NCBI GenBank assembly: GCA_900754175.1
Contig: CAAEBS010000146.1
Coordinates: forward strand, 1-56,728
Source of the DNA: Clostridia bacterium
GTDB lineage: Bacteria > Bacillota > Clostridia > Oscillospirales > CAG-272
Reading direction: 5' to 3'
Length of the DNA: 56,728 bases
Under the pieces are notes generated by a model that was not told the origin of the DNA, did no database searches, and saw nothing but the letters and a program-made list of their open reading frames with translations. Numbering within the stretch: position 1 is the first letter of the stretch; every line of letters starts with the position of its first letter. Position numbers and translations under genes: made by a program. Shown in pieces: positions 15,901 to 33,659 of the stretch.

Positions 15901-17790
15901 CTTTTCCCTCGTCAACTCCTTCAGCGCCTTCCAGACCTGTTGGATCTCGCTGATACTGAGTTTGGTCTGATTCAGAAGCATAAAGTGCTTATCCAGGTCA
16001 TTGTCGTTGAACAACACGTAGCATTCCGCCTGCAAACTGGGATCCCGACCGGCTCTGCCCGCCTCCTGCACGTAATTTTCCAGGGAGTCGGAAATGTCGT
16101 AGTGAACAACCAGGCGGACGTCCTTTTTGTCCACTCCCATACCAAACGCAGAGGTAGCCACAATGATTTTTACCCGGTTCTGAATAAAAGCTTCCTGATT
16201 TGCAATTTTTTCGTTCGGATCCATCTTTCCGTTGAAAGGCTTTGCGGGGAAACCGTCGCTTGTCAGCTTTTCCGCAATCTGGATCGTTCTTTTCGTGAGG
16301 GAAACGTACACGATAGTCGGGCAGTTCTTTTGCTCGATAAGCGCACGGAGCGCATTGTATTTTTCGTCATCGGTTTCTTTGTACAAAACCGTATAATGGA
16401 GGTTTTCACGATCCGCCGTGGAAGTAAACAGCTCCAGTGCAACACCAAGCTTTACCCGGAAATAATCGCAGATATCGGTAATGACCTTCTGTTTTGCCGT
16501 AGCGGTAAAGCAGGACACCGGAACCGGCGTTTTCATTTGTTTTTTCTTCTGGTACTCTTTTATAAAATCGCCAATATACAGGTAATCCACACGGAAATCC
16601 TGCCCCCATGCGGAAAAGCAGTGCGCTTCATCGATGACAAAACGCACCACGTTGCGGGAAAGAAGCAGTTTCTCAATGGTCCGGGAACGCAATTGTTCCG
16701 GAGAAATGTACAAAAGAGTTGCCAGACCGCTCTCCACCCGTTCCAGCGCTTCCGACCGCTCGATCGGGCTGAGCAGACCGTTGACCGTAACGGCGTCCAC
16801 CAGTCCTTTTTCATTCAGATTGTCAACCTGATCCTTCATCAGGGACTGAAGCGGCGAGATGACGACTGTCAGCCCATGAGCGCACTCCCCTGCCATAAGA
16901 GCCGGCAACTGAAAGGTAATGGATTTTCCGCCTCCCGTCGGAAAGACCGCCAACAAGGATTTTCCGTCAACTGCTGCCTGCGCCGCACGCTCCTGCAACG
17001 GTTCTCCGTTATAGGTACGGAAATTGTCGTACCCGAAAAACTGTTTCAGCTTTTTATGAATATCAAGTCTGTCTCTGCAATAGGCACAACCGTCTTTGCA
17101 GGGGGTATGACAAAGATATCGGACGATATTATCAATTCTCGGAAAGTTTTTAGTCAGCCACGGCGGCGTTACGGAATGGTAATCCGAAGCGCTGATCAGA
17201 GCGAGCGCATACGCAAGCTCCACAGGATAATGCCGCACCATCAGCTCCACATCCGAATTTTTGCAGATCCTCCCTTTATATTCCTTGCGGATCCATCCGG
17301 CAACGTCAGAGCGTTCCGGCGTAACGCCAACGTAATCAAAAAAGCCTTTGAATTCCTCACGATCGTACAACAGGCAACTATATATCTGTTTTCTTCTGTA
17401 AGAAAGCTCGTGAAAAGTATTGACCTCATCTGCAAACAACTGCATTGCCTTTTCGGCGTCGTTCAAAGGATTGTTAAGCTGATCGGACAAAATCTTGTCG
17501 TCCTTCAAAAGGCGATGATACGGTCGGCACGGAAACAAAAGCGGAGACAGATAAAGCGTGTCAACCGGCTTGGCACGCAACGGCTTATCAAAATGCGGCG
17601 TCAGATACAAAAGGTCATGATGAACGATATTGTGCCCACAGATAAAGTCCGCATCCGAGACAAAATCATAAAATTTTGGCACAGAAAGCGCATGAAAAGA
17701 AGACCGGTCCTCCTTTATCGCCCCAAGATCCTTTATTTTTTTGTCCTCCACACCGATTTCACTATCAATGAACACGATAGACTTTGCCAT
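12901..17790 (-). CDS. Fusion protein: DEDD 3'-5' exonuclease + RecQ-type SF2 helicase + UvrD-type SF1 helicase
   Basis: ORF track gives 12901..17850. I prefer ATG 17790 (MAKSIVFIDSEIG) with AAAGGAG 7 nt upstream. Exonuclease motifs: FIDSEIG, GHNIVHHD. RecQ motifs: FPTGGGKS, VIDEAHCFSAWGQDFR, QEAGRAGRD. UvrD motifs: AAGPGSGKT, VIDEAQDM, VGDDDQNIYEFRG, ENYRS, TIHKSKGREF, VGMTRAKDNLY. Confidence 0.9.
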   Translation of the reverse strand: MAKSIVFIDSEIGVEDKKIKDLGAIKEDRSSFHALSVPKFYDFVSDADFICGHNIVHHDLLYLTPHFDKPLRAKPVDTLYLSPLLFPCRPYHRLLKDDKILSDQLNNPLNDAEKAMQLFADEVNTFHELSYRRKQIYSCLLYDREEFKGFFDYVGVTPERSDVAGWIRKEYKGRICKNSDVELMVRHYPVELAYALALISASDYHSVTPPWLTKNFPRIDNIVRYLCHTPCKDGCAYCRDRLDIHKKLKQFFGYDNFRTYNGEPLQERAAQAAVDGKSLLAVFPTGGGKSITFQLPALMAGECAHGLTVVISPLQSLMKDQVDNLNEKGLVDAVTVNGLLSPIERSEALERVESGLATLLYISPEQLRSRTIEKLLLSRNVVRFVIDEAHCFSAWGQDFRVDYLYIGDFIKEYQKKKQMKTPVPVSCFTATAKQKVITDICDYFRVKLGVALELFTSTADRENLHYTVLYKETDDEKYNALRALIEQKNCPTIVYVSLTKRTIQIAEKLTSDGFPAKPFNGKMDPNEKIANQEAFIQNRVKIIVATSAFGMGVDKKDVRLVVHYDISDSLENYVQEAGRAGRDPSLQAECYVLFNDNDLDKHFMLLNQTKLSISEIQQVWKALKELTREKPWVCCSALEIARQAGWDDSIKEIETRVKTAVAALENAGYVKRGKNVPHVYATSILAKNMAEASFRIEKSPLFDDKQKENAKRIIKSLISSRSIAEAGNDDAESRVDYLADILGIPKADVVTSVNLMRQDGLLADSMDMSAYIMRSDTENRSAQILNRFIKLEEFLLSHISEQGSDLSLKELNEAAQNAGITASSVKNLRTLLYYLTIKGYISKGSKERNPDDDTSEPTPHTLAVPTMEIPRLLEKFRRRVDVCRFLVKELYEMAQTVEGGQESAPVQFSLVGLWQKYINEPNMGADFDVSGTMLTDVEDALLYLSKIGSMKLEGGFLVLYNGMEVKRLILDNKIRYKAEDYRTLSEYYKQKIQQIHIVGEYANLMVRDYDAALQFVRDYFGMDFKRFIAKYFKGERAKDINRNITPEKYHQLFGELSDMQSQIINDADSRYIVVAAGPGSGKTRVLVHKLASLLLLEDVKHEQLLMVTFSRAAATEFKKRLMALIGNAANFVEIKTFHSYCFDLLGKIGSLDGVENVVHDAAQMIANGEVEQGRITKSVLVIDEAQDMDADEFSLIQALIRNNDDMRVIAVGDDDQNIYEFRGSDSAFMRQLIHDYGATRYELVENYRSKANIVALANRFAEGIGNRMKQNPIEAVQRENGIVQIVRHTCNNMEEPIVRQIMENYRGGRACVLTGTNEDALCVLGLLLKNGIRAKLIQSLDGFRLYNLAEVRFFLHTIDKRLRTPVISNDLWNQAKQALEETYSDSACLENVRNMISDFEKVNSYSKYRSDLEEFIKESQFEDFYTDDRETVFVSTIHKSKGREFDSVWLLLNREQLCDDAGRRKLYVGMTRAKDNLYVHCNTGIFDAYEGAGIGRFVDTTQYPEPQELSLQLTHRDVVLDFFKGKKEQILKLHSGAALSFGQGFLFATLGGYPVKVAKLSKACMARLEELEKKGYCPVSANVRFVVAWKKEEDTRETAVLLPDLHFERKEKKSFVIDRRKADVTDTEV

Positions 17791-17824
17791 GAGACACTCC
17801 TTTTGTTCAGGTAATATGGCGCTT

Positions 17825-18625
17825 TTAAAATTCAACTCTGTTAATTTCATCTGATATTTCAGTTAAGCTTTCATAACTTCCCTTTTCGTTTAAAAAAGCC
17901 TGAACTGTTTTTTTGCCCTGAAGATTAACACTCTCGGTATACATATTGTGTTTTCGGGTATAAAGCCTGCAATTATTAAAATTTACTTCCGCATTGATCA
18001 ACGGCAAAACAACCGCAAAGTGCCTTTTCAGCAAATCCATTTGCCCTTCCGTTATTCTGGGAAAATAAGTAGACACTACATTCCAGATCCCATGACTTAC
18101 AAGTAAAAAATAATCAGTATAATTCGTCACAATAAAAACATTATTCGCTCCTGTTTTGACCGCTAAGTTCAAGGAGTACAAACTATTCCTTCTATTAAAG
18201 ACCTCGGATTTCGGATATCTATGTAATCGATTTTCACGGCATGAATAAAAGTCAAAGCACTGTACATTCCCCGAAAGATCGACGGTGGGGATGATAATAC
18301 TATTGCGCATCTTATCGCAATAAGTTCCCGAGTTGGACTTAAAAACCAAGTGATACTTTTCGGCTTCTTCCTGTTGTTGAGAGGTAGAAAAAACTTTCCT
18401 CGTCAAATAAGGGTCACCATCATGAAAACCTAAACCAAGCTTTGTTATTTCCCGAAAGGAAAGATTATACTTATTCTTTAAAAATGAAAAAGCTGCCTGC
18501 GACTTCGGATTCATCTTCCATTGGGAATAATACAATTTTGCCGCCGTGCGCATCATATTCTCTCGTGATTTTAAAATTGTACTCTTTTTTTCCTCCAATG
18601 TATAGGTATCCCCTTCACCACTCAT
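17825..18625 (-). CDS. DnaG-core-like protein lacking Zn finger and catalytic TOPRIM residues (pseudo-primase)
   Basis: 266 aa. By eye it aligns to the DnaG RNAP/TOPRIM core. LGLGFHD matches IGFAP. MRNSIIIPTVDLSGNVQCF matches FRxRxMFPIxDxxGxVIGFGGR. RYPKSEVFNRRNSLYSL matches KYLNSPETxxFxKGxxLYGL. VFIVTNYTDYFLL matches VVEGYMDVVAL. The TOPRIM Glu is Thr and DGDxAG is replaced by INAEVN. RBS AAGGTGGA. Confidence 0.6.
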   Translation of the reverse strand: MSGEGDTYTLEEKKSTILKSRENMMRTAAKLYYSQWKMNPKSQAAFSFLKNKYNLSFREITKLGLGFHDGDPYLTRKVFSTSQQQEEAEKYHLVFKSNSGTYCDKMRNSIIIPTVDLSGNVQCFDFYSCRENRLHRYPKSEVFNRRNSLYSLNLAVKTGANNVFIVTNYTDYFLLVSHGIWNVVSTYFPRITEGQMDLLKRHFAVVLPLINAEVNFNNCRLYTRKHNMYTESVNLQGKKTVQAFLNEKGSYESLTEISDEINRVEF

Positions 18626-18662
18626 ATGCCGTTTTCCACCTTATGTAAAATCTTATACTTAC

Positions 18663-18691
18663 AGTATATCATAAAATCTGACTATTTTCAA
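18663..18691 (-). promoter_or_regulatory. Promoter of the pseudo-primase/helicase operon
   Basis: Minus strand: TTGAAA (18691..18686), 17 nt, TATACT (18668..18663), preceded by TGa (extended -10). About 30 nt upstream of the RBS. Confidence 0.5.
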
Positions 18692-18752
18692 TCCTTTTTT
18701 TACCAAAAGTGTGAAATTCCGCTTGGAACAAAATATTTTTCATTTTCTTTTT

Positions 18753-18790
18753 TAACCCGGACAGCCGTTGTCCGGGTTAGCTTTTAAAAT
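18753..18790 (+). promoter_or_regulatory. Operator/promoter module, copy 1 (upstream of the seven-gene operon)
   Basis: 11-bp perfect palindrome taacccggaca / tgtccgggtta containing GGACAGCCGTTGTCC, then 11 nt, then TAAAAT (18785..18790). ATG 18817 lies 27 nt further on. Same core and spacing as the copies at 26243 and 32976. Confidence 0.5.
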
Positions 18791-18816
18791 GGTGGTGGAA
18801 TGGAGGTGAGCGGAAG

Positions 18817-19182
18817 ATGGGAACTGCCGAAAGGCGAGCGGAGATCATGAAAATACTGTGCCGGCGCAGACGGGAAAGCATCCGGAATCTGGCGGCTGAA
18901 TTCGGCGTTTCCTCACGGACGATACAGCGTGACGTTGATATTCTGAGCCGCTCCGAACCGATCTTTACCATGCCGGGCAGGTACGGCGGCGTCTGCGTGG
19001 TGGAGGGCTACTCCATGGACCGGATGTACATGACCACGGCGGAAGTTGCGGTACTGCAAAAGCTGTATGCGGCGGCTGAAAGCTCTGCCGGGTTACTTAC
19101 GCTCCCCGAAAAAGATCTGCTCGGTTCCCTGATTGCGCAATACTCCAAGCCAACAAGAAAAAATGAAAGGAATTTATCATGA
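18817..19182 (+). CDS. Small HTH_11/DeoR-like (YafY N-terminal type) transcriptional regulator
   Basis: 121 aa, MGTAERRAEIMKILCRRRRESIRNLAAEFGVSSRTIQRDVDILS. Its stop overlaps the next ATG (ATGA at 19179..19182). Paralogue at 25182..25523. Confidence 0.8.
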   Translation: MGTAERRAEIMKILCRRRRESIRNLAAEFGVSSRTIQRDVDILSRSEPIFTMPGRYGGVCVVEGYSMDRMYMTTAEVAVLQKLYAAAESSAGLLTLPEKDLLGSLIAQYSKPTRKNERNLS

Positions 19183-20264
19183 ACGAAAACGAAAAACAGC
19201 TTTTCAAAGCACTTTGCAAATTCAAAGAACCCACATTCGACGATTCCCTGCTCGCCTACGCAACTCCGTGCGTGCTGGGGCATCTGTTCTTCAACCGGAT
19301 GCAGGGCGTTGCCTACGGCACGCTGAAGCGGCGGGGAGCGCTCGGGCGTGTAAACCGGGAATTCCGGAACTCTCTCGGTGCGGCGTTTGAGCAGAACCGG
19401 CAGAAAAACGAAAGCTTTCTGCAATGTGTCGGAACGCTCTCGGAGCTTCTTTCCGACGGCGGCGTCCGGGCGGCTATGCTGAAAGGCGCATTCCTGTGTG
19501 CGCACTATCCGGAGGGCTACCGGACCTCCAACGACATCGACCTGCTGGTGCTTCCCGAGGACGTGACGGCGGTCGGCACGCTGCTTTACGATGCGGGATT
19601 CCGCCAGGGGAGCGTCCGGGAGGGCAAATTCATCCCCGCCACCCGTGTCCAGATCATCACCTCCAAAATGATGCGGGGCGAAACCGTCCCGTACATCCGG
19701 GAAGTCGGTCTGCCTCAGATGAAATATCTTGAGGTGGATATCAATTTCTCTCTGGACTACAAAAACGGCGACGACCGTATTCTGCACGACCTTCTGGCAC
19801 GCACCACGACACGGGAGGAGGACGGGCTTCCCATTCCGATGCCGGAATCCTGCGACTTTTTCCTCCACCTTTGCGCCCACCTCTACAAGGAGGCGACCAC
19901 GCTTCCCTGGATCGAAATGCGCCGGGACATGACGCTGTACAAATACGCCGACCTCTATCTTCTGCTCCACGAGCTGGACGACACCGGCATTGCCGAGATC
20001 TTTGACCGTGCCCGGGCGCTTGGACTTGACAAAATCTGCGCTTATGCGATTCTGGAAACGATAGAGTTGTTCGATATGAAAAACGATACTGCCTGCCAAC
20101 TGGCAAACCAAGCGCTGGCAGACGACCCGGATTTCCGCCTGCGGGTCACGTCCACCAAGGACAAAAAGATACTGATCTACCGGACCGCAAGCGCTACCGA
20201 GCGCTTTTTCATGGACGACCGGACAAAGGATCTCAGGGAGGTGAAAAGCGATGAAAAGGCTTAA
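19179..20264 (+). CDS. Nucleotidyltransferase family protein (NTP_transf_5 / PF14907-like)
   Basis: 361 aa. AAMLKGAFLCAHYPEGYRTSNDIDLLVLPEDV matches the LKG...R..DIDLLV hallmark I associate with PF14907. RBS GAAAGGAA. Confidence 0.72.
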   Translation: MNENEKQLFKALCKFKEPTFDDSLLAYATPCVLGHLFFNRMQGVAYGTLKRRGALGRVNREFRNSLGAAFEQNRQKNESFLQCVGTLSELLSDGGVRAAMLKGAFLCAHYPEGYRTSNDIDLLVLPEDVTAVGTLLYDAGFRQGSVREGKFIPATRVQIITSKMMRGETVPYIREVGLPQMKYLEVDINFSLDYKNGDDRILHDLLARTTTREEDGLPIPMPESCDFFLHLCAHLYKEATTLPWIEMRRDMTLYKYADLYLLLHELDDTGIAEIFDRARALGLDKICAYAILETIELFDMKNDTACQLANQALADDPDFRLRVTSTKDKKILIYRTASATERFFMDDRTKDLREVKSDEKA

Positions 20265-20886
20265 TATGCGGGAAAACCGGACCCCCGGGCGGCTGATCAC
20301 CTTTTGCGGACTGGATGGTTGCGGCAAGACGACCATGATCCGGCGGCTGTTTGACGAGCTGGAGAGCACGCACAGCATTTTCCTGACCAAGCAGCCGACC
20401 AACGCCGTGCGGAAATCCGAGATCTTCCGGAACTACATGGACTGCCCCGATCACAACGCCTTCGACTACCGCAGTCTTTCCCTGCTTGCCGCAAGCGACC
20501 GACTGCAACACGTGAACAAGGTGATTGAGCCGGCGATGCAACACGGCGGCATCGTACTCAGCGACCGGTATTTTTACTCCTGCCTTGCCAATCTGCGGGC
20601 AAGAGGCTTTGAAAAGGACGACTGGATCTACGAAATCGCAGGCTCGGTCATCAAGCCGGATCTTGCCTTTTTCTTTGACGTGCCGGTGGAGGTGGCGGTG
20701 GACCGGGTCCGCAGTCGCCCGGAGGAAAAGAACCGGTACATCGACATTGACCTGCAATACCGGCTCCGCAAGGAGTATGTGGACATCTGCTTTGCAAACG
20801 GCGGCATCCTCATCTCCACCATGGAGCCGGAGGACGACTGTTACGCCCTGGTGAAAAAAGCGGTAAAGGAGGTACTGAAAAAATGA
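20251..20886 (+). CDS. Thymidylate-kinase-like P-loop nucleotide kinase
   Basis: 211 aa. LITFCGLDGCGKTT (Tmk P-loop G-x-DG-x-GKT/S-T), FLTKQPT, SDRYFYSCLA (Tmk DRY motif), and an Arg-rich LID-like VDRVRSRPEEKNRY. RBS GGGAGGTG. Overlaps the previous gene by 14 nt. Confidence 0.78.
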   Translation: MKRLNMRENRTPGRLITFCGLDGCGKTTMIRRLFDELESTHSIFLTKQPTNAVRKSEIFRNYMDCPDHNAFDYRSLSLLAASDRLQHVNKVIEPAMQHGGIVLSDRYFYSCLANLRARGFEKDDWIYEIAGSVIKPDLAFFFDVPVEVAVDRVRSRPEEKNRYIDIDLQYRLRKEYVDICFANGGILISTMEPEDDCYALVKKAVKEVLKK

Positions 20887-21149
20887 CGGTATTAGAGAAA
20901 ATCATTGCGATCCTGACAGAGCTGAGCGACGAAAAGGTCATCACGCCGGAAAGCCGGCTTACCGAAGATCTGGCGCTGGACAGCATCCGGATGGTAACGC
21001 TTCTGATCGAGCTGGAGGAAAGCTTCGGCATCGTCCTTGCCGAGTCGGACATGAACCCGTTCGACCTGATCACGGTAAGCGACGTTATAACGCTTGTGAA
21101 AAAATATGAAAAGGAGCCGGAAAGCAACCATGAAAAAGAACAGAATTGA
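20883..21149 (+). CDS. Acyl/peptidyl carrier protein
   Basis: 88 aa. LTEDLALDSIRMVTLLIELEESFG contains the D-S-(L/I) phosphopantetheine attachment motif. ATGA overlap with the upstream stop. RBS AAGGAGG. Confidence 0.85.
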   Translation: MTVLEKIIAILTELSDEKVITPESRLTEDLALDSIRMVTLLIELEESFGIVLAESDMNPFDLITVSDVITLVKKYEKEPESNHEKEQN

Positions 21150-22134
21150 GCTTCCCCTCATCGAACCGGTGTACAGCACCTATCACAATCAGGGAGCGGG
21201 CAGTGCGATCCTCGTCCACAACCCCTCCATCCGGAACTGGTATCTGAATCAGGTATTGATCCTCACCTGCAACCGGAAATTTCTGAAAGGCTTTACCACG
21301 CCCGAGGTCAGCATTGTGGAGGGCACCTGGAATACCAATCCTTATCTGGAAAAGAAGTGGTTCGGATTGCAGTTTCTCCGGGGGCACGTCCACTACGTGA
21401 TCCGGAATCTGCTGGAGGCGGGCTATTACGTCACCTTCAACGGAATCGACGACTACTACGTAGAGGGAAAAAGCTGGTACCGACAGCGGCATTTTCCCCA
21501 CGACGGCTGTATCTGCGGATACGACCCGGAGGACGACACCTACTGCATTTACGCCTACGATCAGAACTGGATCTACCGGAAATTCAAAACGCCGAAAAAA
21601 TGCTGGGAGGCGGGGCGGAAAGCCATGTTCAAGGTGGGGCGCTACGGCAACATCTGCGGTCTGAAGCCCAAGGGCGACAAAGTCGTTTTTTCGCCGGAAA
21701 CCGCCCGGAAAAAGCTTGCCGAATACCTGAACTCCGATTTTGAAAAATATCCGGAGGACGGTGAGGGACCGGTGTACGGAATCGTGGTACACGATTACAT
21801 TGCGAAATACGTCGGAAAGCTTTACGACGGTTCGATTCCCTACGAAAAAATGGATCGCCGGGTGTTCCGGCTGATCTGGGAGCACAAAAAGGTCATGCTG
21901 GAGCGGATCCGCCGGATTGAGGAGGCGCTCTCCCTCGGCGGCGACGTCGGCGACCGGTACGAGGCAGTGGTAAAGGACGCCGATATGCTCCGGATGCTTT
22001 ACGCCTCTCACCACATGAAACGCCGGGACTCGGTCCTGCCGGTCATTCAGAAAAAACTGCTCTCGCTCAAAGCGTGCGAGCAGGCGCTTCTGACCGAGCT
22101 TCTGGCAAACTCGGAGGGAGGTGGCGTGGAATGA
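21130..22134 (+). CDS. Hypothetical protein (possible BtrH/C39-like papain-fold acyl-carrier-dependent transferase)
   Basis: 334 aa from ATG 21130 (AAAGGAG 14 nt upstream; alternative ATG at 21106). No family recognised with confidence. RQRHFPHDGCICGYDPEDDTYCIYAYD resembles the H-x-GYD-x-D segment of BtrH_N/C39-like folds. Its stop overlaps the next ATG. Confidence 0.6.
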   Translation: MKKNRIELPLIEPVYSTYHNQGAGSAILVHNPSIRNWYLNQVLILTCNRKFLKGFTTPEVSIVEGTWNTNPYLEKKWFGLQFLRGHVHYVIRNLLEAGYYVTFNGIDDYYVEGKSWYRQRHFPHDGCICGYDPEDDTYCIYAYDQNWIYRKFKTPKKCWEAGRKAMFKVGRYGNICGLKPKGDKVVFSPETARKKLAEYLNSDFEKYPEDGEGPVYGIVVHDYIAKYVGKLYDGSIPYEKMDRRVFRLIWEHKKVMLERIRRIEEALSLGGDVGDRYEAVVKDADMLRMLYASHHMKRRDSVLPVIQKKLLSLKACEQALLTELLANSEGGGVE

Positions 22135-23510
22135 AGCTCTGGAACTTTATCCGGGAAGCAATGATGTCGCACCCGACGCAGAAGATCCGGGAGGAGCGTG
22201 CGGAAATGAGCTTTGAAGAAGTAGCGGTCTTTGCCCGGGAGTTTTCGGAAAGGCTCCGGGGATTCCGTTGCTGTGCCATTCTCTGCTCCTCCGAAATGGC
22301 GGCGGCAATGGCGCTCCTCTCCTGCTTTGCGGCAGAGGTAACGGCACTGCCCCTCTCCATGCGGTACGGACAAGCCCACTGCCGCAAGATTCTTGACGCC
22401 GTAAGCCCCGACGCTATCATCAGCGACAACGGCGGAGAGCTGGCGGTATACCGGCTGGATCCCGGCAGCTATTCTCCACCCGATGTACATCCGGCGCTCA
22501 TCATGTGCACCTCCGGCACCACCGGAAAGCCCAAGGGCGCCATGCTCAGTGAAAGCAATATCCTTGCCAACGTGACCGATATTGCCGGATATTTTGCGCT
22601 CGGGGAAAGCGATACCATTCTGATCGCCCGCCCGCTCTACCACTGTGCGGTGCTGACCGGCGAATTTCTGACCGCCCTGGTCCGGGGCGCCGGGATCCGC
22701 TTTTACTCGGGGAACTTCAACCCACCGAAAATGCCGGAGCTGATCCGAAACTATGAGATCACGGCTTTCTGCGGAACGCCTACCCTGCTGTCGATGATGG
22801 CAAGATTCAGCCGTGGCACGCCGCCCCCGACCCTGAAGCATATCGTGATCAGCGGCGAATGTATGGGCGCCGACACCGGCATTGCCATTGCCGACGCCTT
22901 TCCGCAAAGCCGGATCTACCACGTTTACGGGCTGACCGAGGCTTGCCCACGGGTCAGCTATCTGCCTCCCGAAGCCTTCCGGCAATACCCCGATTGCGTC
23001 GGGATTCCCCTGCGCTCGGTCTCGGTTCGCCTGCTTACCCCGGACGGCGCTCTCTGCCAGCCCGGCGAGGAAGGCGTCCTGTGGGTCAGGGGGGACAACG
23101 TGATGCTCGGCTACTACCGGGATCCCGGAAGGACCGCCGAAATTCTGCGGGACGGCTGGCTCTGCACCGGCGACCTTGCGGTGAAGAACGACGCCGGCTA
23201 TCTGAAGATCAAGGGGCGCAACGACGATCTCATCATCAAATCGGGCATGAACGTCTACCCCGCCGAAATCGAGGCGGCAATGAAACAGGACGCAAGAGTC
23301 CGGGAAGTGCTGGCATACAAAGTCGAAGGCCGCTTCGGCGTGCAGATCGGCATGAAGCTGGCAGGCGACTTTTCCTCGGTGGAAGAGGTAAAAAAGCTCT
23401 GCGCACAGCTCCTGCCCCCCTTTCAGATCCCGGCGGTCATCACGCTGGTGGACGAACTGCCGAAAAACGGCTCCGGCAAAATCATACGGAGGGAACGCCA
23501 TGACGCTTGA
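22131..23510 (+). CDS. Adenylate-forming enzyme (AMP-dependent synthetase/ligase, DltA-sized)
   Basis: 459 aa from ATG 22131 (RBS GGAGGGAGG). IMCTSGTTGKPKGAMLS, YGLTEA, GDLAVKNDAGYLKIKGRNDDLIIKSGMNVYPAEIE, LPKNGSGKI. Confidence 0.9.
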   Translation: MKLWNFIREAMMSHPTQKIREERAEMSFEEVAVFAREFSERLRGFRCCAILCSSEMAAAMALLSCFAAEVTALPLSMRYGQAHCRKILDAVSPDAIISDNGGELAVYRLDPGSYSPPDVHPALIMCTSGTTGKPKGAMLSESNILANVTDIAGYFALGESDTILIARPLYHCAVLTGEFLTALVRGAGIRFYSGNFNPPKMPELIRNYEITAFCGTPTLLSMMARFSRGTPPPTLKHIVISGECMGADTGIAIADAFPQSRIYHVYGLTEACPRVSYLPPEAFRQYPDCVGIPLRSVSVRLLTPDGALCQPGEEGVLWVRGDNVMLGYYRDPGRTAEILRDGWLCTGDLAVKNDAGYLKIKGRNDDLIIKSGMNVYPAEIEAAMKQDARVREVLAYKVEGRFGVQIGMKLAGDFSSVEEVKKLCAQLLPPFQIPAVITLVDELPKNGSGKIIRRERHDA

Positions 23511-24060
23511 AACAGAAAAGAAAGCACTGCTGACCCGGCAGGAAGCCGACGTCCTTCTGCATCATTTTGCAGGCGGGATCGCCTCTGTCGTCCAGACCAA
23601 CTATTATTTCGACAGCGAGGACCGGTCGATGGATCAAAGAGACATCACCTGCCGGGTCCGCATGAAAGACGGAAAAGCCGCCGCTACCATGAAAATCCAC
23701 CACGTGGGAAACGGACAAAGCGTGGAGGTCCCCTTTCCGGTGACCGACGGGCTGAACCGGAACGGCTTTACCGACATGGGACTGCGGCTCTGCGGTTTTC
23801 TGACCACCTGCCGCACCGTCCTTGTCCGGACCGATACCTTTGAGCTGGTGCTGGACCGGAACCGCTACCTCGGCTGTGAGGACTACGAGCTGGAGCTGGA
23901 ATATTCGGCGCTCGGAAAAGAATCTGCCGGACTGTACTGGCAGTACGTCCTCCGCCTGCTTCAGAATCATACGGCGGACCGGCGCCCGGTGCAGACCGAC
24001 CGGGTGCCGGGAAAATCCCGCCGGTTCTTCCGCCGGCTGAGCGAATACGACCGCCGGTAG
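23500..24060 (+). CDS. CYTH-domain protein (triphosphate tunnel metalloenzyme / class IV cyclase-like)
   Basis: 186 aa. N-terminal LETEKKALL is the ExExK motif. Also QTNYYFD, ITCRVRM, ATMKI, and VLDRNRYLGCEDYELELEY (C-terminal acidic ExExE). Overlaps the ligase gene by 11 nt. RBS GGAGGGAA. Confidence 0.75.
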   Translation: MTLETEKKALLTRQEADVLLHHFAGGIASVVQTNYYFDSEDRSMDQRDITCRVRMKDGKAAATMKIHHVGNGQSVEVPFPVTDGLNRNGFTDMGLRLCGFLTTCRTVLVRTDTFELVLDRNRYLGCEDYELELEYSALGKESAGLYWQYVLRLLQNHTADRRPVQTDRVPGKSRRFFRRLSEYDRR

Positions 24061-24169
24061 CCCTGCCCTGCCGCATCATGCCAACGTCCTGACCTGTCCG
24101 TGTTGCCAGACAATTTACGGTATTTTCCAAAAGCAAATTGTAAATAAAACATGAAGTTTCAGAAAGCCC

Positions 24170-24198
24170 TTGACAAGCCGTGATTTTTGCATTATAAT
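24170..24198 (+). promoter_or_regulatory. Consensus sigma-A-type promoter of the LexA-like gene
   Basis: TTGACA (24170..24175), exactly 17 nt, TATAAT (24193..24198). ATG 24237 is preceded by AAGGAG. Confidence 0.6.
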
Positions 24199-24236
24199 AA
24201 AACCACAATTTCCACAATCAGATAAGGAGATCTCTT

Positions 24237-24854
24237 ATGCGGACCATGAATCAGGAAAAAACAGAAAGACTTTCCGAATTTCTCAAGCAATATGCAAGAG
24301 ATAACAACGGCACTTCTCCGGGTCTTTCGGAAATCATGGAATATATGGGAATGTCCAAGGCAACGGCATACCGCTATATTCTCGAACTGGAAAGGCAGGG
24401 GCTGGTGTCGTACAGCGGCAAAAACACCCTGGAGACCGATCTGCAACGCAAAATGAACTGCGGCTTCCGCAAGGTGCCGCTGGTCGGTCAGATCGTCTGC
24501 GGCACGCCCGACGAGCAGGAGGAATTCATCAGCGAATATCTTGCCATTCCGGAAGAGTGGGTGGACGGCGAATGCTTTCTGCTCCGGGCATACGGCGATT
24601 CCATGATCGACATCGGGATCGAAAAGGACGACCTTATTCTGGTAAAGCGGGCGGAAACGGCGGAAAGCGGCGACGTCGTCGTGGCGCTGACCGAGAACGG
24701 CAACACGCTGAAGCGGCTGTTCTGGGAGGGCAACAAGCCGAGACTGCACGCCGAAAACAAAACATACAAGCCAAAGGATGTGGACATATACCCCGAATCC
24801 CTGACGATTCAGGGGATCGCCCTGAAAGTAATCAAAAACATCCGGCAAAAATAA
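24237..24854 (+). CDS. lexA: LexA-family repressor (winged HTH + S24 self-cleaving peptidase)
   Basis: 205 aa. N-terminal LexA-type wHTH (GLSEIMEYMGMSKATAYRYILELERQGLV). Hinge VPLVGQIVCGTP. Ser/Lys dyad context AYGDSMIDIGI ... NTLKRL. Confidence 0.75.
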   Translation: MRTMNQEKTERLSEFLKQYARDNNGTSPGLSEIMEYMGMSKATAYRYILELERQGLVSYSGKNTLETDLQRKMNCGFRKVPLVGQIVCGTPDEQEEFISEYLAIPEEWVDGECFLLRAYGDSMIDIGIEKDDLILVKRAETAESGDVVVALTENGNTLKRLFWEGNKPRLHAENKTYKPKDVDIYPESLTIQGIALKVIKNIRQK

Positions 24855-24868
24855 AAGGAGGGATCCGC

Positions 24869-25075
24869 ATGATAAAATACCCGTGTCCGATCTGCAACAG
24901 GCGGGCGTGCGACTCAAACAAGTATCTTTCTCTTGCCAAATTATCCGAAAACAATGAGTCCAGAGCCGACGTGGTCATCAAATGTCAGAACTGCAAAAAC
25001 ACCCTGGCGGTAAAGGTTCTGGCAAACGCCGTCGTCTTTGAACAGACAAGCCCGCAGGAGGGCGCAAATTCCTGA
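24869..25075 (+). CDS. Small Zn-ribbon protein (CxxC...CxxC), hypothetical
   Basis: 68 aa, MIKYPCPICNRRACDSNKYLSLAKLSENNESRADVVIKCQNCKNTLAVKV... RBS AAAGGAGGG 6 nt upstream. 14 nt after the lexA-like stop. Lies inside a longer ORF-track frame (24557..25075). Confidence 0.5.
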   Translation: MIKYPCPICNRRACDSNKYLSLAKLSENNESRADVVIKCQNCKNTLAVKVLANAVVFEQTSPQEGANS

Positions 25076-25114
25076 CCCCCAGCACTTCGTACATCGCACG
25101 ATGTTTCAACATAC

Positions 25115-25162
25115 GAGCATGACAAGTAGCCTTACGCTATTTGTCATGCTCTTTTATTTTTT
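25115..25162 (+). terminator. Rho-independent terminator after the LexA-like/Zn-ribbon genes
   Basis: 11-bp stem gagcatgacaa (25115..25125) / ttgtcatgctc (25141..25151), followed by TTTTATTTTTT. Confidence 0.6.
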
Positions 25163-25181
25163 CGCAGAAAGGAGGAAAACG

Positions 25182-25523: not shown

Positions 25524-25552
25524 CCGTCAGCCCGCCGACACTCTTATAAACA

Positions 25553-25607
25553 AAAAAATTCTGCGTATCAGAATCTCCCTTACGGTGGATCCCGATACGC
25601 AGTTTTT
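25553..25607. terminator. Possible bidirectional terminator between convergent genes
   Basis: A-run, 9-bp stem ctgcgtatc (25561..25569) / gatacgcag (25594..25602), then TTTTT. The long 24-nt loop makes it weak. Confidence 0.35.
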
Positions 25608-26174: not shown

Positions 26175-26224
26175 GACAGCACCTCCCTTTCCTTTTTATT
26201 ATATCATGAAAAAGCAAAAAAGTC

Positions 26225-26274
26225 AAAAATATTTTCCAACCACGACAGCAGTTCTCCGGTTTACGCTTTATAAT
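26225..26274 (+). promoter_or_regulatory. Operator/promoter module, copy 2 (upstream of the DUF1906/Big_2 genes)
   Basis: AAAAATATTTTCCAAccaCGACAGCAGTTCTCC, then 11 nt, then TATAAT (26269..26274). 42 of 51 positions match copy 3 in my hand alignment. Confidence 0.5.
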
Positions 26275-26338
26275 AAGCTTGCAGCTGCAAAATAACACAC
26301 AACAAACAAAAATTTTTCAAAAAAAGGAGAAAAAAACT

Positions 26339-27148
26339 ATGGCTTGTAGAAAAGCTTACAAAACCAAAATCATGAAAACGGAGGTCGCCGCAAGCGTGCA
26401 GACTTCCGCCACAGTGCCGGAGGTGGCAAAAAGCGTAGACCGCCTCCTCTTCGGAGCGGACTCCGAAATTCCGGCAAACGACCTGCTTCAGAACAACATC
26501 GAGGAATTCGAGTGGGTCGTCCGCAATAAGATCTACCCCAACTTCTACGGCAGATACCTGACGGGAGAAAACGGGCTTACCAAAAAGGAGATCCGTTTCC
26601 TGCACAACAAGGGCTGCAAGATCGCCGCTATCTATGTCGATGAGGGCGAAAAACAGACCAAAGAGGCGGGCACGGTCCTCGCCAAGAAAATGGATATCCG
26701 GGCGTTTGAGCTTGGTATCCCCGAGGGAACCGCCATCTTCCTGGAGATCGGCGACAACGAGCCGGTCAACCGTGACTTTATGAAAGGTTACGCAAACGCC
26801 CTCCTCGCCGCCGGTTATACCCCCGGCTTCAAGGTCAACACCGACGCAAAATACCCCTTTGACCGGGAATTCAGCCGTGGAATGCAGTCCGATAAGGACG
26901 TGTTCGCAAAATGCCTGATCTGGGCAGTGACGCCCACCGTCAAGGAGTATAACGGCATCACCACCACGCACCTCATTCACCCCGACAACTGGGCACCCTT
27001 CGCCCCCTCCGGTATCACCCGAAACGAAATTGCCATCTGGCAGTACGGCAGAGCCTGCCACCCCATTGAGGACGACACCGGCAAAATGGTTACCTTCAAC
27101 CTGGACCTTGTCCGGAATGAACAGGTAATTATTGACAAAATGTTCTGA
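26339..27148 (+). CDS. DUF1906 / Rv2525c-like glycoside-hydrolase-fold protein (lysin-like), no signal peptide
   Basis: 269 aa from ATG 26339 (RBS AAGGAGA). GRYLTGENGLTKKEIRFLHNKGCKIAAIYV and a C-terminal IAIWQYG...FNLDLV resemble the DUF1906/GH25-like TIM-barrel family. Confidence 0.65.
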   Translation: MACRKAYKTKIMKTEVAASVQTSATVPEVAKSVDRLLFGADSEIPANDLLQNNIEEFEWVVRNKIYPNFYGRYLTGENGLTKKEIRFLHNKGCKIAAIYVDEGEKQTKEAGTVLAKKMDIRAFELGIPEGTAIFLEIGDNEPVNRDFMKGYANALLAAGYTPGFKVNTDAKYPFDREFSRGMQSDKDVFAKCLIWAVTPTVKEYNGITTTHLIHPDNWAPFAPSGITRNEIAIWQYGRACHPIEDDTGKMVTFNLDLVRNEQVIIDKMF

Positions 27149-27176
27149 AACCGACAACACAAAGGAGGTAAAACAA

Positions 27177-29324
27177 ATGACATGTGTAAATTCAGTCCGT
27201 ATCTATCCTGAAACCATCACGCTGGAAACCGGTTGCTGGTACTACCAGGCGTACGCCGAGGTGTGCCCGGAAAACGCCGACTGCAAGGAGGTGACCTGGT
27301 ACAGCGACGATCCCGCCATTGCAAGCGTGAACTATTCCAGCGGCTACATTTATGCCCGTTCGGTCGGCGTTACCCGGATCCACGCCATGGCAACCGACGG
27401 CAGCGGGTGCTGTGATTATCTCACGGTAACCGTGAAAAAATCGGTGCCGGTGCGTTCGGTCACCCTGGACCATTCCTACCTTTCGCTGGAGAAAGGGACC
27501 GACGTCACACTTCACGCCACGGTCTGCCCGGAAAACGCCACCAACCGGCGCCTGAACTGGCACAGCAACAATCCGAACGTCGCCACGGTAAGCAACGGCG
27601 GCACGGTCACGGCGATCTCCAAAGGCAGTACCATTATCACCGCCACTGCCGCCGACGGCAGTCTGGCTTGCGACTGCTGTAACGTCATCGTCACGACCGA
27701 CATCCTGGTCTCCTCAGTGACCGTTGTACCGTCAAGTAAGGTAATGACTGTAGGAAATTCAGCATATCTTGATGCTAGTATTTGTCCCCCTGACGCTTCC
27801 AATAAATGCGTAATCTGGCACAGTGAAAACGAGGCAATCGCCACTGTAAGCTCCAACGGGCTTGTCATTGCGCATGCGGCAGGAACTACGGTCATTTATG
27901 CCACTTCGTGCGACGGAAGTGATATTACCGGCTGTTGCCGCCTTACAGTAAACGCCAAAATCCCTGTTTCCGGCATTACCGTAACTCCCGCAACAGCAGA
28001 TCTTAAAGTAGGGACACGCAAAAAGTTGACCGTAACAGTGTCCCCTGCCAATGCAACTGATAAAAGAGTGCGATGGTCTTGCGGGCAATCGGAGATCGTA
28101 TTACTTGACACCCTGACGGGCGAAATACAGGCTATTGCCGCAGGAAACGCAACCGTCACGGCAACTGCTGTTGATGGAAGCGGCGTGTCTGGCTCTTGCC
28201 AGCTTCTGGTCACTGAAATCCCCGTAACGGGAATATCTATAGACCCTACGTCTTATACGATGAATGCAAAGAGTTCCGCACGTTTTGGCGCAACCATCAG
28301 CCCCTCAAACGCAACGAACAAAAAAATCATCTGGTCAAGTAATAACAAAGCTGTTGCAACAGTAAACCAGAACGGTTGTGTAACCGCTGTATCACCTGGA
28401 AATGCTACCATTTGGGTCACTGCGCAAGGTAACAAAGCCAAAACTGCTTCCGCCGCTCTCACTGTTAATGCGGCTGATACAAGAGAAGAAGTTGTAATTC
28501 AAAAAAATAATGAAGGTGGATATAAATTCTTCAAAGCTACTTTTAAAAATGGTTTGATTTGGGAAAGTGTTGAAGCAGAAAGAACAGTTATTACCGATTT
28601 GGCTCATAAACCACATCTCAGAAGAGCCAATGCCAATGTTGGGAGAGAATACTCAGATCAGCAGCTTGCATTTTTGTATCGTCTCGACCCCTTAGGGGTG
28701 GAATATTACGTAAATACATATACTAGAAATAAAAATCTCAGCACTGCTCAAGTATTGTATTACAGAGATCGAATATACAAAGCAATATTCGGTGATTCTG
28801 AAGACCGTCAGGGTCGCTTTCGCTTCACATTGGATAACAATGGAAATGTTCTCTATGGCAACTACAGTGGAGATAGAACAAAGTATTATACAAATGCAGA
28901 AATACTATTCGGTTCTCATGTTAATATCGACTGGAGTCAGTTTTGGCATGATATTATTGTGATGGTATTCAACAAAATTCCCGGAGTTTCAGCATTACAG
29001 CTTGGAGTAGAGGTTTTCAGAGGTTTGTTCTTCTCTGGATCATTAGTGGGAACTGCAAATAGCGCTGCTTCCAATTTCCTTGAAAATTATTGTAATGACT
29101 ATATGGCAGCAACCTCAGAAGAGAGCTTGTGCTCCATGCTGTTGGGATGGCCAGGAAACTTATGTAGCACACTATTAAAGCTTGGAAACATATTTGTGGA
29201 TGCTATTACACCAAAGAACATAAATGATATTACGCTTTACAAAAAAATTGATGAGCAAAGCAACTATAGATTAGTGTTCAACGGTGTACCCATGGCAAAT
29301 ATTATTGCACGTTGTAATACTTAA
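27177..29324 (+). CDS. Five-fold Big_2 (bacterial Ig-like) repeat protein with an unknown AT-rich C-terminal domain, no signal peptide
   Basis: 715 aa from ATG 27177 (RBS AAAGGAGG). Five repeats of the ...A.V.P.NA.NK.V.W.S.N..IATV...G.V.A...G...I.A...DGS... type, each ending in Cys-rich strands (CCDYLTVTV, CDCCNVIVT, GCCRLTVN, GSCQLLVT). The last ~285 aa match nothing I recognise. Confidence 0.8.
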   Translation: MTCVNSVRIYPETITLETGCWYYQAYAEVCPENADCKEVTWYSDDPAIASVNYSSGYIYARSVGVTRIHAMATDGSGCCDYLTVTVKKSVPVRSVTLDHSYLSLEKGTDVTLHATVCPENATNRRLNWHSNNPNVATVSNGGTVTAISKGSTIITATAADGSLACDCCNVIVTTDILVSSVTVVPSSKVMTVGNSAYLDASICPPDASNKCVIWHSENEAIATVSSNGLVIAHAAGTTVIYATSCDGSDITGCCRLTVNAKIPVSGITVTPATADLKVGTRKKLTVTVSPANATDKRVRWSCGQSEIVLLDTLTGEIQAIAAGNATVTATAVDGSGVSGSCQLLVTEIPVTGISIDPTSYTMNAKSSARFGATISPSNATNKKIIWSSNNKAVATVNQNGCVTAVSPGNATIWVTAQGNKAKTASAALTVNAADTREEVVIQKNNEGGYKFFKATFKNGLIWESVEAERTVITDLAHKPHLRRANANVGREYSDQQLAFLYRLDPLGVEYYVNTYTRNKNLSTAQVLYYRDRIYKAIFGDSEDRQGRFRFTLDNNGNVLYGNYSGDRTKYYTNAEILFGSHVNIDWSQFWHDIIVMVFNKIPGVSALQLGVEVFRGLFFSGSLVGTANSAASNFLENYCNDYMAATSEESLCSMLLGWPGNLCSTLLKLGNIFVDAITPKNINDITLYKKIDEQSNYRLVFNGVPMANIIARCNT

Positions 29325-29337
29325 ACAACATAAGCAA

Positions 29338-32956: not shown

Positions 32957-33007
32957 AAAAATATTTTTCCAATGGCGACAGCAGTTGTCCTCTTTTCCCT
33001 TTATAAT
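32957..33007 (+). promoter_or_regulatory. Operator/promoter module, copy 3 (upstream of the xhlA-holin operon)
   Basis: AAAAATATTTTTCCAAtggCGACAGCAGTTGTCC, then 11 nt, then TATAAT (33002..33007). ATG 33052 lies 45 nt downstream. Confidence 0.5.
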
Positions 33008-33051: not shown

Positions 33052-33342
33052 ATGGAAGAAACACAGATCATTCTGGAACGGCACGAGCAACAGCTACGGG
33101 CACTGGAGCGGGATATTTCGGACCTGAAAGCGGTCCAGAGCGAAATCCGCACCATGAACGAAACGCTTGTCACTCTTGCCACCGAGCTGAAACACACCAA
33201 CGAACATCTGGCACGTCATGAAGAAAAAATCGGCGCCATGGAGGATCGTCCCCGGATGCGTCTGCAACAGATTGTGACCGCCATTATCGCCGCCCTTGCG
33301 GGCGGGCTGGTATCGGCTGTGATCGGAATGCTTCTTGCCTGA
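33052..33342 (+). CDS. xhlA: XhlA-like (haemolysin XhlA family) coiled-coil protein with C-terminal TM anchor
   Basis: 96 aa. Coiled coil HEQQLRALERDISDLKAVQSEIRTMNETLVTLATELKHTNEHL, then the TM segment IVTAIIAALAGGLVSAVIGMLLA. RBS AAAGGAGGA. Sits in the typical position before a holin. Confidence 0.7.
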   Translation: MEETQIILERHEQQLRALERDISDLKAVQSEIRTMNETLVTLATELKHTNEHLARHEEKIGAMEDRPRMRLQQIVTAIIAALAGGLVSAVIGMLLA

Positions 33343-33353
33343 GGAAAGACGAT

Positions 33354-33641
33354 ATGGACTTTTACGAATTCATCAAGCCCGAGCTTCTCATCCTCATCCC
33401 GGTCCTGTATTTTGTCGGGATCGGACTGAAGAAAAGCAAGCTCCCCGACTACCGTATTCCCCTGTTGCTGGGAGCGTTCTCCGTCCTGCTGTGCGCCGCA
33501 TGGGTGATCGCCACAAGCGACATTTCAGGCGCCCGTGACGTTGCCTGTGCGCTGTTCATCGCCGTTACGCAGGGGATCCTTACGGCAGGCGCCAGCGTTT
33601 ATATTCATCAGCTCTCCGTTCAATTCAAAAAGAAAAATTAA
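33354..33641 (+). CDS. Phage holin family protein (Hol44 / holin_5_2-like)
   Basis: 95 aa, 3 TM segments. N-terminus FIKPELLILIPVLYFVGIGLKKSK and TQGILTAGASVY match the clostridial phage holin family as I remember it. Confidence 0.7.
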   Translation: MDFYEFIKPELLILIPVLYFVGIGLKKSKLPDYRIPLLLGAFSVLLCAAWVIATSDISGARDVACALFIAVTQGILTAGASVYIHQLSVQFKKKN

Positions 33642-33659
33642 GAAAGAAGGAATTTTATC

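Follow-up and report, generated by a model that had tools for sequence, protein, structure and literature searches.

The 56,728-nucleotide contig CAAEBS010000146.1 of an uncultured member of the Clostridia (Oscillospirales, CAG-272), analyzed over its whole length and called the window here, carries three copies of a promoter module, each of which stands in front of a different operon. The first operon begins with HTH1, a small winged-helix protein of the HTH_11 family (HTH, helix-turn-helix), and continues with genes for a nucleotidyltransferase (NTase), a kinase, an acyl carrier protein (ACP), a ligase and a CYTH protein; the second encodes a glycoside hydrolase (GH)-like enzyme and a Big_2 protein; and the third is an XhlA-holin cassette. 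The module is conserved well beyond the window, where it precedes the same three operon classes, and the comparative data strongly support a single regulon of three operons. The reading towards which we incline, with slightly more confidence than doubt, is that sensor-less activators resembling DriD and PafB act below a LexA-like repressor and switch the operons on together.

A 27-bp dyad in fixed register with the -10 hexamer

A search for the core followed by a -10 hexamer, GACAGCNGTTNTCC-N11-TAWAAT, returned exactly three copies in the window, each 5' of an operon, and reading the sequence back at all three sites placed them where the original prediction had put them (Table 1). Of the 51 or 52 positions aligned between copies 2 and 3, 42 are identical, the upstream tract AAAAATATTTT included, and copy 1 contains the 11-bp perfect palindrome claimed for it, with 11 of 11 arm positions in Watson-Crick pairing about a 5-nt centre. 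The arms are kept in the copy-1 orthologues at loci L004 and L020, and the centre base varies (C, G or A). The 14-nt core had been taken for the operator; it is real, but the operator is the larger, 27-bp dyad.

Alignment of 23-24 promoters gave TTTTTTAAC(C)nnGACAGYAGTTGTCnn(G)GTTA-N3-TT-TAtAAT, which can be written as the consensus TTTTTTAACCnnGACAGYAGTTGTCnnGGTTA-N5-TATAAT. Two pairs of symmetric blocks, AAC/GTT 22 bp apart and GACA/TGTC 9 bp apart, together form the 27-bp dyad TAACCnnGACA-N5-TGTCnnGGTTA. Information peaks at G0, C2, T9, G10, T11 and C12, in the outer AAC/GTT blocks, in the T-run and in the -10; G0, C2, G10 and C12 are present in 22-23 of the 23 sites, with 7 nt from C2 to G10, and the -10 bases T25, A26 and T30 occur in all 23 aligned promoters, TATAAT being perfect in most copies. 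In every one of the 24 instances exactly 12 nt separate TGTC from the -10. On a numbering that assigns the -10 hexamer to -12..-7, GACA falls at -37..-34, the dyad centre at -31, TGTC at -28..-25 and the whole dyad at about -44 to -18. From the -10 to the start codon there are 26, 64 and 44 nt in copies 1, 2 and 3, respectively.

In the aligned promoters no TTGACA-like hexamer lies 16-18 nt 5' of the -10, the -35 position reading CAGYAG (at most 2 of 6 matches), and no TG occurs at -15/-14, which means that the extended -10 is missing as well. The alignment and the promoter scan agree in this respect with the original prediction that the dyad overlies the -35 position and that a TTGACA-like box is lacking: the consensus scan skips the three sites yet calls neighbouring promoters at 10-12 of 12. 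The T-run (kept in 15-22 of 23 promoters at alignment positions -12..-7) and an A-rich stretch further 5' are not mirrored, and they look like an UP element. The A/T tract of copy 1 would be a UP-like element at about -67..-44, and that of copy 3 (AAAAATATTTT) would match AAAWWTWTTTT, which we take to be the core of the Escherichia coli UP element.

The module is far more frequent than chance would have it. With one mismatch or none allowed, the 14-nt core has four matches in the window against 0.25 expected, and none of 100 shuffles reached four. The fourth match (4715-4728, minus strand, one mismatch) lies inside a 2205-aa RHS open reading frame (ORF) and has no -10, and we discount it as chance; other AAAATATTTT tracts, at 7567 and 46241, have no core nearby. 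A scan with a position weight matrix had been suggested as a check, and a matrix built from 21 sites of other genomes only, with the window sites left out, scored copies 1, 2 and 3 at 53.1, 43.6 and 33.2 bits against a null maximum of 6.9. Within the available sequence it finds only these three window sites; apart from their palindromic echoes, nothing in the window exceeds 8 bits.

Conservation beyond the window was judged from loci of relatives (up to 20 kb per locus), 11 of which were fetched through the neighbouring HTH protein and hence independently of the motif. The pattern GACA-N5-TGTC-N12-TAnnnT has 18 exact matches in 15 sequences totalling 280 kb, where 0.125 are expected, and all 18 lie on the gene strand 5' of one of the three operon classes. 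Thirteen of them fall in the 11 protein-fetched loci, with identical geometry and before the same three classes, and so the claim that the three operons form one regulon is borne out by comparisons in which the motif played no part. When the distance from TGTC to the -10 was opened to 8-16 nt, it was exactly 12 in 16 of 16 matches.

Wider scans added few sites. Among species-representative genomes the pattern had 13 matches, one of them in a true relative (L004, a copy-1 orthologue); 11 were chance matches in one near-identical mobile gene found across Clostridia genera, and one, in the Pasteurellaceae, was also due to chance. The mobile gene (L002, L003, L005-L013) has a near-identical coding sequence in Zongyangia, Butyricicoccus, Intestinimonas, Pseudoflavonifractor and others, and has evidently been widely transferred. 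Because it made up most of the genome-scan matches, T at core position 7 was excluded from the metagenome scan, which recovered orthologues of copy 1 (L020) and copy 3 (L015, L017) together with the same organism (L019); two further matches, L016 and L018, look like chance. Sites orthologous to copy 3 are present in L015, L017, L023, L025, L028, L029 and L035. A scan of viral contigs gave only one match, a chance occurrence in a coding region.

HTH_11 proteins as candidate activators

The proteins most likely to bind the dyad, as judged from sequence comparisons, are the HTH_11 paralogues HTH1 and HTH2, rather than the LexA-like protein encoded in the same island. HTH1 and HTH2 share 44% identity, and each belongs to a family of more than 300 clusters at 90% identity (at least 303 for HTH1) with members of about 113-122 aa; 94 representatives were found at E<=1e-10 among 1.84 billion proteins. 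The WYL model of PADLOC matches both (E 1.5e-10 for HTH1 and 6.4e-12 for HTH2) at positions 3-93 of its 229, i.e., over its N-terminal part only, and Pfam finds no WYL domain in either. HTH2 also has weak matches to the HTH_PafC and SpoIIID families. An AlphaFold model (pLDDT 87.7) consists of a winged helix-turn-helix plus two C-terminal helices, and its Foldseek matches, all of them weak (the best has E 2.6e-3, and none reaches 1e-3), include DNA-bound DriD (8tp8), CapW (9c5g) and PurR. Four residues at the beginning of predicted helix 3 (R34, T35, R38 and D39) do not vary among 45 sequences, and the common recognition segment G-V-S-x-R-T-I-Q-R-D is invariant in HTH1 and HTH2. From the R-x3-R pattern and the weak fold match we infer that R34 and R38 are equivalent to R37 and R41 of DriD. 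Taken together, the invariant GxC-N7-GxC columns of the module and the R34/R38 pair make a good, though indirect, case for the HTH_11 proteins as binders. A suggestion that each paralogue has its own operator (AACCCG for HTH1, AACCAC for HTH2) fits w1, L004 and L020 and is broken by L031-L033 and L032b.

In the mechanism that we favor, the three sites would be housekeeping-sigma promoters with an excellent -10 and no -35. A dimer of HTH_11 proteins would occupy the dyad, HTH2 being the universal one and HTH1 a paralogue that heads the biosynthetic-looking operon. The HTH_11 proteins would be truncated relatives of WYL regulators such as DriD and PafB that have kept the winged helix and lost the WYL domain that senses single-stranded DNA (ssDNA). 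The downstream half-site would lie in the register of the PafBC '-26 element' and the upstream half-site would fill the -35 position, a placement that suggests that the bound dimer substitutes for -35 recognition in the manner of sigma adaptation. Since the HTH proteins lack a sensor domain, the signal would enter through their expression level. The missing -35, the perfect -10, the register that stays fixed although the 11-12 nt between differ, and the homologous winged helix all point to an activator and not a repressor, and it is this geometry, together with homology to DriD and PafBC, that leads us to favor activation.

PafBC, a WYL-family activator, acts by inserting between sigma region 4 and DNA (PMC8635444). 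Its motif is tGTCgg(N10)tA(N3)T in promoters without a -35, the '-26 element' spans -23..-28, and PafB reads the GTC triplet there with R46 and R50 (PMC8635444). The mycobacterial 'RecA-NDp' hybrid promoters controlled by PafBC resemble the module in having a canonical -10, no -35 and TGTC-N12-TAnnnT, with a register identical in 24 of 24 module copies. PafBC also offers a winged-helix reader with two arginines four residues apart on GTC, as is predicted for the HTH proteins, and a place in a DNA-damage circuit. Unlike PafBC, the module would be served by proteins of 113-121 aa without a WYL domain, its 27-bp dyad has an upstream half that fills the -35 position, and the 'gg' of tGTCgg is present in some copies only. 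Moreover, it occurs in Clostridia and not Actinobacteria, and on toxin and lysis operons and not on repair genes.

The DriD box of Caulobacter is ATACGAC(X)7GTCGTAT, in which Arg37 recognizes G2 and Arg41 the G that pairs with C4 (PMC10853764). The crystallised site ATACGACAGTTACTGTCGTAT compares with TAACCACGACAGTAGTTGTCGTGGTTA here: both CGAC-N7-GTCG and the module have the same four invariant bases (PMC10853764), and the core in L023, CGACAGTAGTTGTCG, has the G-x-C-N7-G-x-C of the DriD box. DriD would further be alike in being a dimeric winged helix with an Arg37/Arg41-type pair, in the A/T-rich centre of its site and in having a site at the regulator's own promoter (PMC10853764, PMC9186387). 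The flanking C/G of the DriD box (positions 1 and 15) is not conserved in the module. Peculiar to the module are its outer TAACC/GGTTA blocks and its T-run. DriD itself is a protein of 327 aa with ssDNA-sensing WYL and WCX domains, unlike HTH1 and HTH2, which have no WYL domain. The module thus belongs to neither the PafBC nor the DriD system and, by its sequence, would work like a hybrid of the two.

Activators that bind near -30 to -35 and replace a missing or mis-spaced -35 at promoters with a good -10 are familiar from T4 MotA/AsiA, lambda CII and Spo0A at spoIIG. The xxGACA 21 nt 5' of the -10 in the module recalls the 22-bp spacing at spoIIG, although the proteins and motifs are unrelated and the likeness is an analogy only. 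An analogy with the ComR box was considered and could not be documented.

The input to this circuit would come from the LexA-like protein, which combines a winged helix with Peptidase_S24 and falls in the PHROG transcriptional repressor and UmuD-like families. It would control a strong canonical promoter, probably self-repressed, from which its own gene, a 68-aa Zn-ribbon gene, a terminator-containing leader and HTH2 are read. With the repressor inactivated by damage, the level of HTH2 would increase, and the toxin/surface-protein, GH-like, holin and accessory operons would come on together. In L021 and L025-L030 the genes for the Zn-ribbon and HTH2 directly follow the LexA-like gene, whose promoter is kept in 6 other genomes, where the direct repeat CCRCAA-GTT-CCRCAA follows just after the -10. 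This repeat co-varies as CCACAA-GTT-CCACAA or CCGCAA-GTT-CCGCAA, and a conserved TTGTAAATAAAACATAAGTT stands 5' of the -35 (24100-24236); both are probably the repressor's own operators. In L015 (3049-4219) an XRE-type HTH plus an ImmA/IrrE M78 peptidase takes the place of the LexA-like S24 protein, a swap of two damage-responsive repressor types before the same Zn-ribbon-HTH2 unit. L035 has no LexA-like gene, the modules being kept in both L015 and L035, and in L021 the module is kept on the NTase operon without HTH1.

The Zn-ribbon gene is found just 5' of HTH2 in every readable locus (L015, L024-L026, L028, L034, L035). Between the two, a leader of about 100 nt is nearly invariant in 9 genomes (the window, L015 at 4505-4606 and seven other loci). 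It has no Rfam match, and an RNA family search of 18500-33200 found nothing. It is possible that the leader is an attenuator that gates HTH2. Its hairpin arms, GACAAGTAGC and GCTATTTGTC, resemble module half-sites.

Points against activation and competing explanations

A number of points weigh against activation by the HTH_11 proteins. WYL-type winged-helix proteins also include repressors (CapW, BrxR), and a dyad over -44..-18 would occlude RNA polymerase if the protein on it made no contact. Neither precedent fits fully: PafBC is a WYL-domain heterodimer of which only PafB touches DNA, with a non-palindromic site and a need for RNA polymerase in binding, and DriD boxes stand 5' of the -35 (at didA their 3' end is at -36, and at recA the box is 17 nt 5' of the -35) without a fixed tie to the -10. 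HTH1's own promoter has the strongest site, a perfectly symmetric one, and such a placement is typical of negative autoregulation. The module is accompanied by the Zn-ribbon just as regularly as by HTH2, so that the Zn-ribbon could be the binder or a required partner. Co-occurrence of the HTH gene is in part an ascertainment effect, because loci fetched via the HTH protein contain its gene by construction. Lastly, the Foldseek matches are such as would be expected of winged-helix folds in general, and searches of PDB sequences with HTH2, its profile and the HTH alone recovered neither DriD nor PafB, the sole match being a weak one to SpoIIID (E 9e-4 to 7e-3). A GGACAAG-type site for SpoIIID could not be confirmed and serves as a lead only.

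The most serious competitor, which we regard as possible but distinctly less probable than activation, is that the dyad is a repressor operator. An HTH_11 dimer over -44..-18 would block polymerase at a promoter made of a -10 plus a UP-like tract, induction would require that the repressor be degraded, diluted out or countered by an anti-repressor (the Zn-ribbon, for example), and HTH1 would negatively autoregulate its own operon. The dyad does overlap the whole -35 and spacer region, the most perfect palindrome stands at HTH1's own promoter, and the A/T tracts, which match an UP element, could sustain -35-independent transcription. WYL-family winged-helix proteins count repressors among them, with CapW among the Foldseek matches, and DriD has been proposed to autorepress at its promoter. 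Repressed promoters, however, usually keep their core elements, and here neither a -35 nor an extended -10 is found in any of the 24 promoters, whose neighbours are canonical. The operator-to-(-10) distance is invariant despite varying sequence between, which suggests a stereospecific contact with RNA polymerase, and the spacing equals that of the activator PafBC. A repressor of this kind would also have no sensor domain through which release could occur, and the co-transcription of HTH2 behind the LexA-like gene means that damage would raise the supposed repressor.

It is improbable that another protein of the locus binds the module while the HTH_11 proteins act elsewhere. The candidates would be the Zn-ribbon protein and the LexA-like protein. 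Ogr/Delta-type late-gene activators, such as P2 Ogr and 186 B, have a size and cysteine pattern similar to those of the Zn-ribbon protein, which has a weak match to a PHROG 'DNA binding protein' family and whose gene stands beside HTH2 wherever the region is readable; the LexA-like gene adjoins the system in most loci. But G-x-C-N7-G-x-C comprises the bases read by a DriD-type arginine pair and the HTH_11 proteins keep R-x3-R, and the HTH1-headed operons carry the module with no Zn-ribbon gene beside them. The LexA-like protein is an unlikely binder because L015 and L035 keep modules in its absence and its own promoter carries the different, CCRCAA-type repeat. The LexA/SOS (Cheo) box of Firmicutes is a GAAC-N4-GTTC dyad, and the module, with GACA-N5-TGTC and outer AAC/GTT blocks 22 bp apart, does not match it.

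The original prediction had left open a dedicated repressor, activator or alternative sigma factor. Comparative geometry supports a dedicated regulator, but an alternative sigma factor reading GACAGC... as a -35-like element is very unlikely, since most copies have the housekeeping -10, TATAAT, in perfect form and no sigma gene accompanies the system from locus to locus. The housekeeping -35 is indeed missing, and L023/L024 and L033/L034 have ECF-like sigma genes close to the system, but the window island and most related loci have none, and a symmetric 27-bp dyad is unlike a -35 element.

Least likely of all is that the module is a terminator or a repeated hairpin spread by recombination, with TATAAT as a U-rich tail and no regulatory meaning: copy 1, L023 and L029 fold at -19, -17 and -14.8 kcal/mol (z -3.4 to -5.3) with T-rich sequence after them, and in L023-L030 the hairpin lies about 15 nt past the HTH2 stop codon, but copies 2 and 3 (z -0.5 and -0.3) and L025a fold no better than shuffles, the divergent upstream gene at all three window copies leaves nothing to terminate, L004 and L020 have a separate strong terminator 5', sequence is conserved beyond pairing, and the distances to the -10 and the gene are fixed. 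A stable hairpin, a U-run and a co-directional gene do not come together at the module, in that only some copies fold and the upstream genes are divergent. The arm mismatches (10 G:T against 13 A:C) show no G:U bias, and this, with copies 2 and 3 folding no better than shuffles, points to a constraint on double-stranded DNA and not on an RNA hairpin. Where the module directly follows HTH2, the hairpin may have an additional terminator role.

The operons and the recurrent system

Pfam bears out the gene assignments of the original prediction, except that HTH1 starts at 18817 (MGTAERR...) and not at 18838, and the GH-like gene at an ATG at 26339. The coordinates of the features are collected in Table 1.

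Table 1. Features of the module, its operons and the candidate regulators in the window
Feature	Position	Strand	Remarks
Copy 1 A/T-rich tract AAAATATTTTTCATTTTCTTTTTT	18730..18753	+	Ends in conserved T-run just 5' of dyad
Copy 1 dyad operator TAACCCGGACA-GCCGT-TGTCCGGGTTA	18753..18779	strandless	27 bp; inferred position -44..-18
Copy 1 core to -10	18760-18790	+	GACAGCCGTTGTCC-GGGTTAGCTTT-TAAAAT
Copy 1 -10 hexamer TAAAAT	18785..18790	+	12 nt past TGTC
HTH1, 121-aa HTH_11 winged helix	18817..19182	+	First gene of copy-1 operon (Pfam HTH_11)
Rest of copy-1 operon	19179..24060	+	NTP_transf_5, thymidylate-kinase-like, ACP, 342-aa unknown, AMP-binding ligase, CYTH (Pfam)
LexA-like gene promoter TTGACA-17-TATAAT	24170..24198	+	12/12 match; canonical housekeeping; proposed cascade entry
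LexA-like repressor, winged helix plus Peptidase_S24	24237..24854	+	Pfam S24 E 5.9e-26
Zn-ribbon protein, 68 aa, CxxC-N~30-CxxC	24869..25075	+	No Pfam family; candidate alternative or auxiliary regulator
Conserved leader between Zn-ribbon ORF and HTH2	25077..25181	+	16-bp terminator hairpin plus T-run (terminator scan)
HTH2, 113-aa HTH_11 winged helix	25182..25523	+	Proposed binder/activator of module
Copy 2 UP-like tract CAAAAATATTTT	26224..26235	+	Common to divergent promoter
Copy 2 dyad operator CAACCACGACA-GCAGT-TCTCCGGTTTA	26237..26263	strandless	Left half consensus, right half degenerate
Copy 2 core to -10	26244-26274	+	GACAGCAGTTCTCC-GGTTTACGCTT-TATAAT
Copy 2 -10 hexamer TATAAT	26269..26274	+	
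Palindrome GCAGCTGC	26281..26288	strandless	6 nt past copy 2 -10
Copy-2 operon	26339..29324	+	Rv2525c/DUF1906 GH-like 26339-27148; Big_2 x5 protein 27132-29324 (Pfam)
Copy 3 tract AAAAATATTTTT	32957..32968	+	First 11 nt 32957-32967, inferred -57..-47
Copy 3 dyad operator CAATGGCGACA-GCAGT-TGTCCTCTTTT	32970..32996	strandless	Intact core, degenerate outer arms
Copy 3 core to -10	32977-33007	+	GACAGCAGTTGTCC-TCTTTTCCCTT-TATAAT
Copy 3 -10 hexamer TATAAT	33002..33007	+	
Copy-3 operon	33052..35842	+	XhlA-like, Hol44 holin, metallophosphoesterase, Asp-Al_Ex permease (Pfam; PHROG hemolysin, holin, phosphoesterase)

Across loci the system recurs as four units: (HTH1)-NTP_transf_5-kinase-ACP-unknown-AMP ligase-CYTH; the Rv2525c GH-like enzyme with a Big_2/DUF6531/RHS toxin and small proteins; the LexA-like S24 protein with the 68-aa Zn-ribbon and HTH2; and XhlA-like, Hol44 holin, metallophosphoesterase and Asp-Al_Ex. 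The gene order that follows the module in the copy-1 operon is repeated in L021, L031, L032 and L033. Its products match no known defence system in PADLOC, and the operon would encode a biosynthetic-looking small-molecule or modification pathway. The copy-3 gene order is repeated in L015, L023-L026 and L035, and in the window this operon may extend into a 1036-aa ORF at 35849-38959.

The copy-2 and copy-3 operons had both been described as lysis-type. The DUF1906/Big_2 unit corresponds in other genomes to a GH-like gene followed directly by an RHS toxin (in L025, L030 and L032 a Big_2-DUF6531-RHS protein of 1,690 to 1,932 aa) and is not simply a lysis operon. The Big_2 protein of the window (730 aa) lacks the RHS part, and a separate RHS-repeat gene for 2205 aa (524-7141, minus strand), with no module 5' of it, lies 11 kb from the island, which suggests a rearrangement. 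The GH-like and Big_2 proteins have no obvious signal peptide, as judged by eye from their N-termini, and this would fit a release of the GH-like, Big_2 and RHS proteins that depends on holin and hydrolase. In L023-L030 and L035 some 15 nt lie between the end of HTH2 and the xhlA module. The window is rearranged here as well, with other genes between HTH2 and xhlA and all three modules kept.

The palindrome GCAGCTGC is confined to promoters of the GH-like/RHS class, with the same place in window copy 2, L025, L027, L030, L031 and L032 and the variant ACAGCTGC at that position in L033. It is not found in the other two operon classes, and its role may be that of an additional control element for this class or of a feature of the 5' mRNA.

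In each of the three intergenic regions the divergent gene has a canonical TG-extended promoter of its own (18663-18691, 26198-26226 and 32926-32954, minus strand), the -35 box of which abuts the common A/T tract. Counted from these promoters, the dyad would lie at about -40 to -60, and a protein bound there could act on them too. The minus-strand genes encode a DnaG_N-like protein, a DUF4231-like membrane protein and a putative lipoprotein; these are unrelated, and an origin of the module as a by-product or remnant of gene duplication is therefore ruled out. Divergent from copy 1, at 12901-18625 on the minus strand, are the DnaG_N-like protein, a 1649-aa double helicase (DEAD plus UvrD) and RecQ. 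This operon is kept in the same-species strains L036, L038 and L039 and is not beside the module in other genera.

The logic proposed here would be that of RoeA-controlled toxin release by a type 10 secretion system (T10SS) and of pyocin control by PrtR-PrtN, in which an activator acts below PrtR, a LexA-like repressor. In Yersinia entomophaga RoeA, encoded beside the holin, co-activates the lysis cassette and large toxins of the Tc/RHS type, which share a promoter motif (PMC10847048). The present system is alike in having one putative regulator gene beside the holin and a common motif on lysis and RHS-type toxin operons: HTH2 is immediately 5' of xhlA-holin in L023-L030 and L035, and the holin, GH-like/RHS and accessory operons all carry the module. 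RoeA, ChiR of Serratia and PrtR-PrtN differ in being Gram-negative, with unrelated regulators and motifs and with spanins, and in lacking an NTase-ACP-ligase-CYTH operon. The system described here is a Gram-positive one known from sequence alone.

Full-text literature searches found no paper describing the motif or system or linking its parts. The motif ties together what is apparently an undescribed, conserved multi-operon system of uncultured gut Clostridia, with an RHS/Big_2 toxin, a GH-like enzyme, an XhlA-holin cassette, an NTase-kinase-ACP-ligase-CYTH pathway, a LexA-like repressor and two small HTH proteins, and would give it a single control point. The combination of PafBC geometry with a DriD-like box bears on whether WYL-type replacement of the -35 is widespread and whether a sensor-less minimal domain is enough for it. 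A bolder proposal, tentative and rather unlikely in its entirety, is that sigma adaptation extends beyond Actinobacteria, a sensor-less WYL-regulator remnant of about 115 aa in gut Clostridia replacing -35 recognition at a DriD-like palindrome in the PafBC register, as a homodimer or as an HTH1/HTH2 pair (cf. PafB/PafC). It would be the master switch after damage for RHS toxins, a muramidase-like enzyme, the holin and an ACP-linked nucleotide product, and the system would be a Gram-positive counterpart of T10SS 'soldier cell' release. If the proposed cascade is true, commensal Firmicutes would have a form of toxin release that is linked to SOS and coupled to lysis, with a bearing on how gut bacteria compete.

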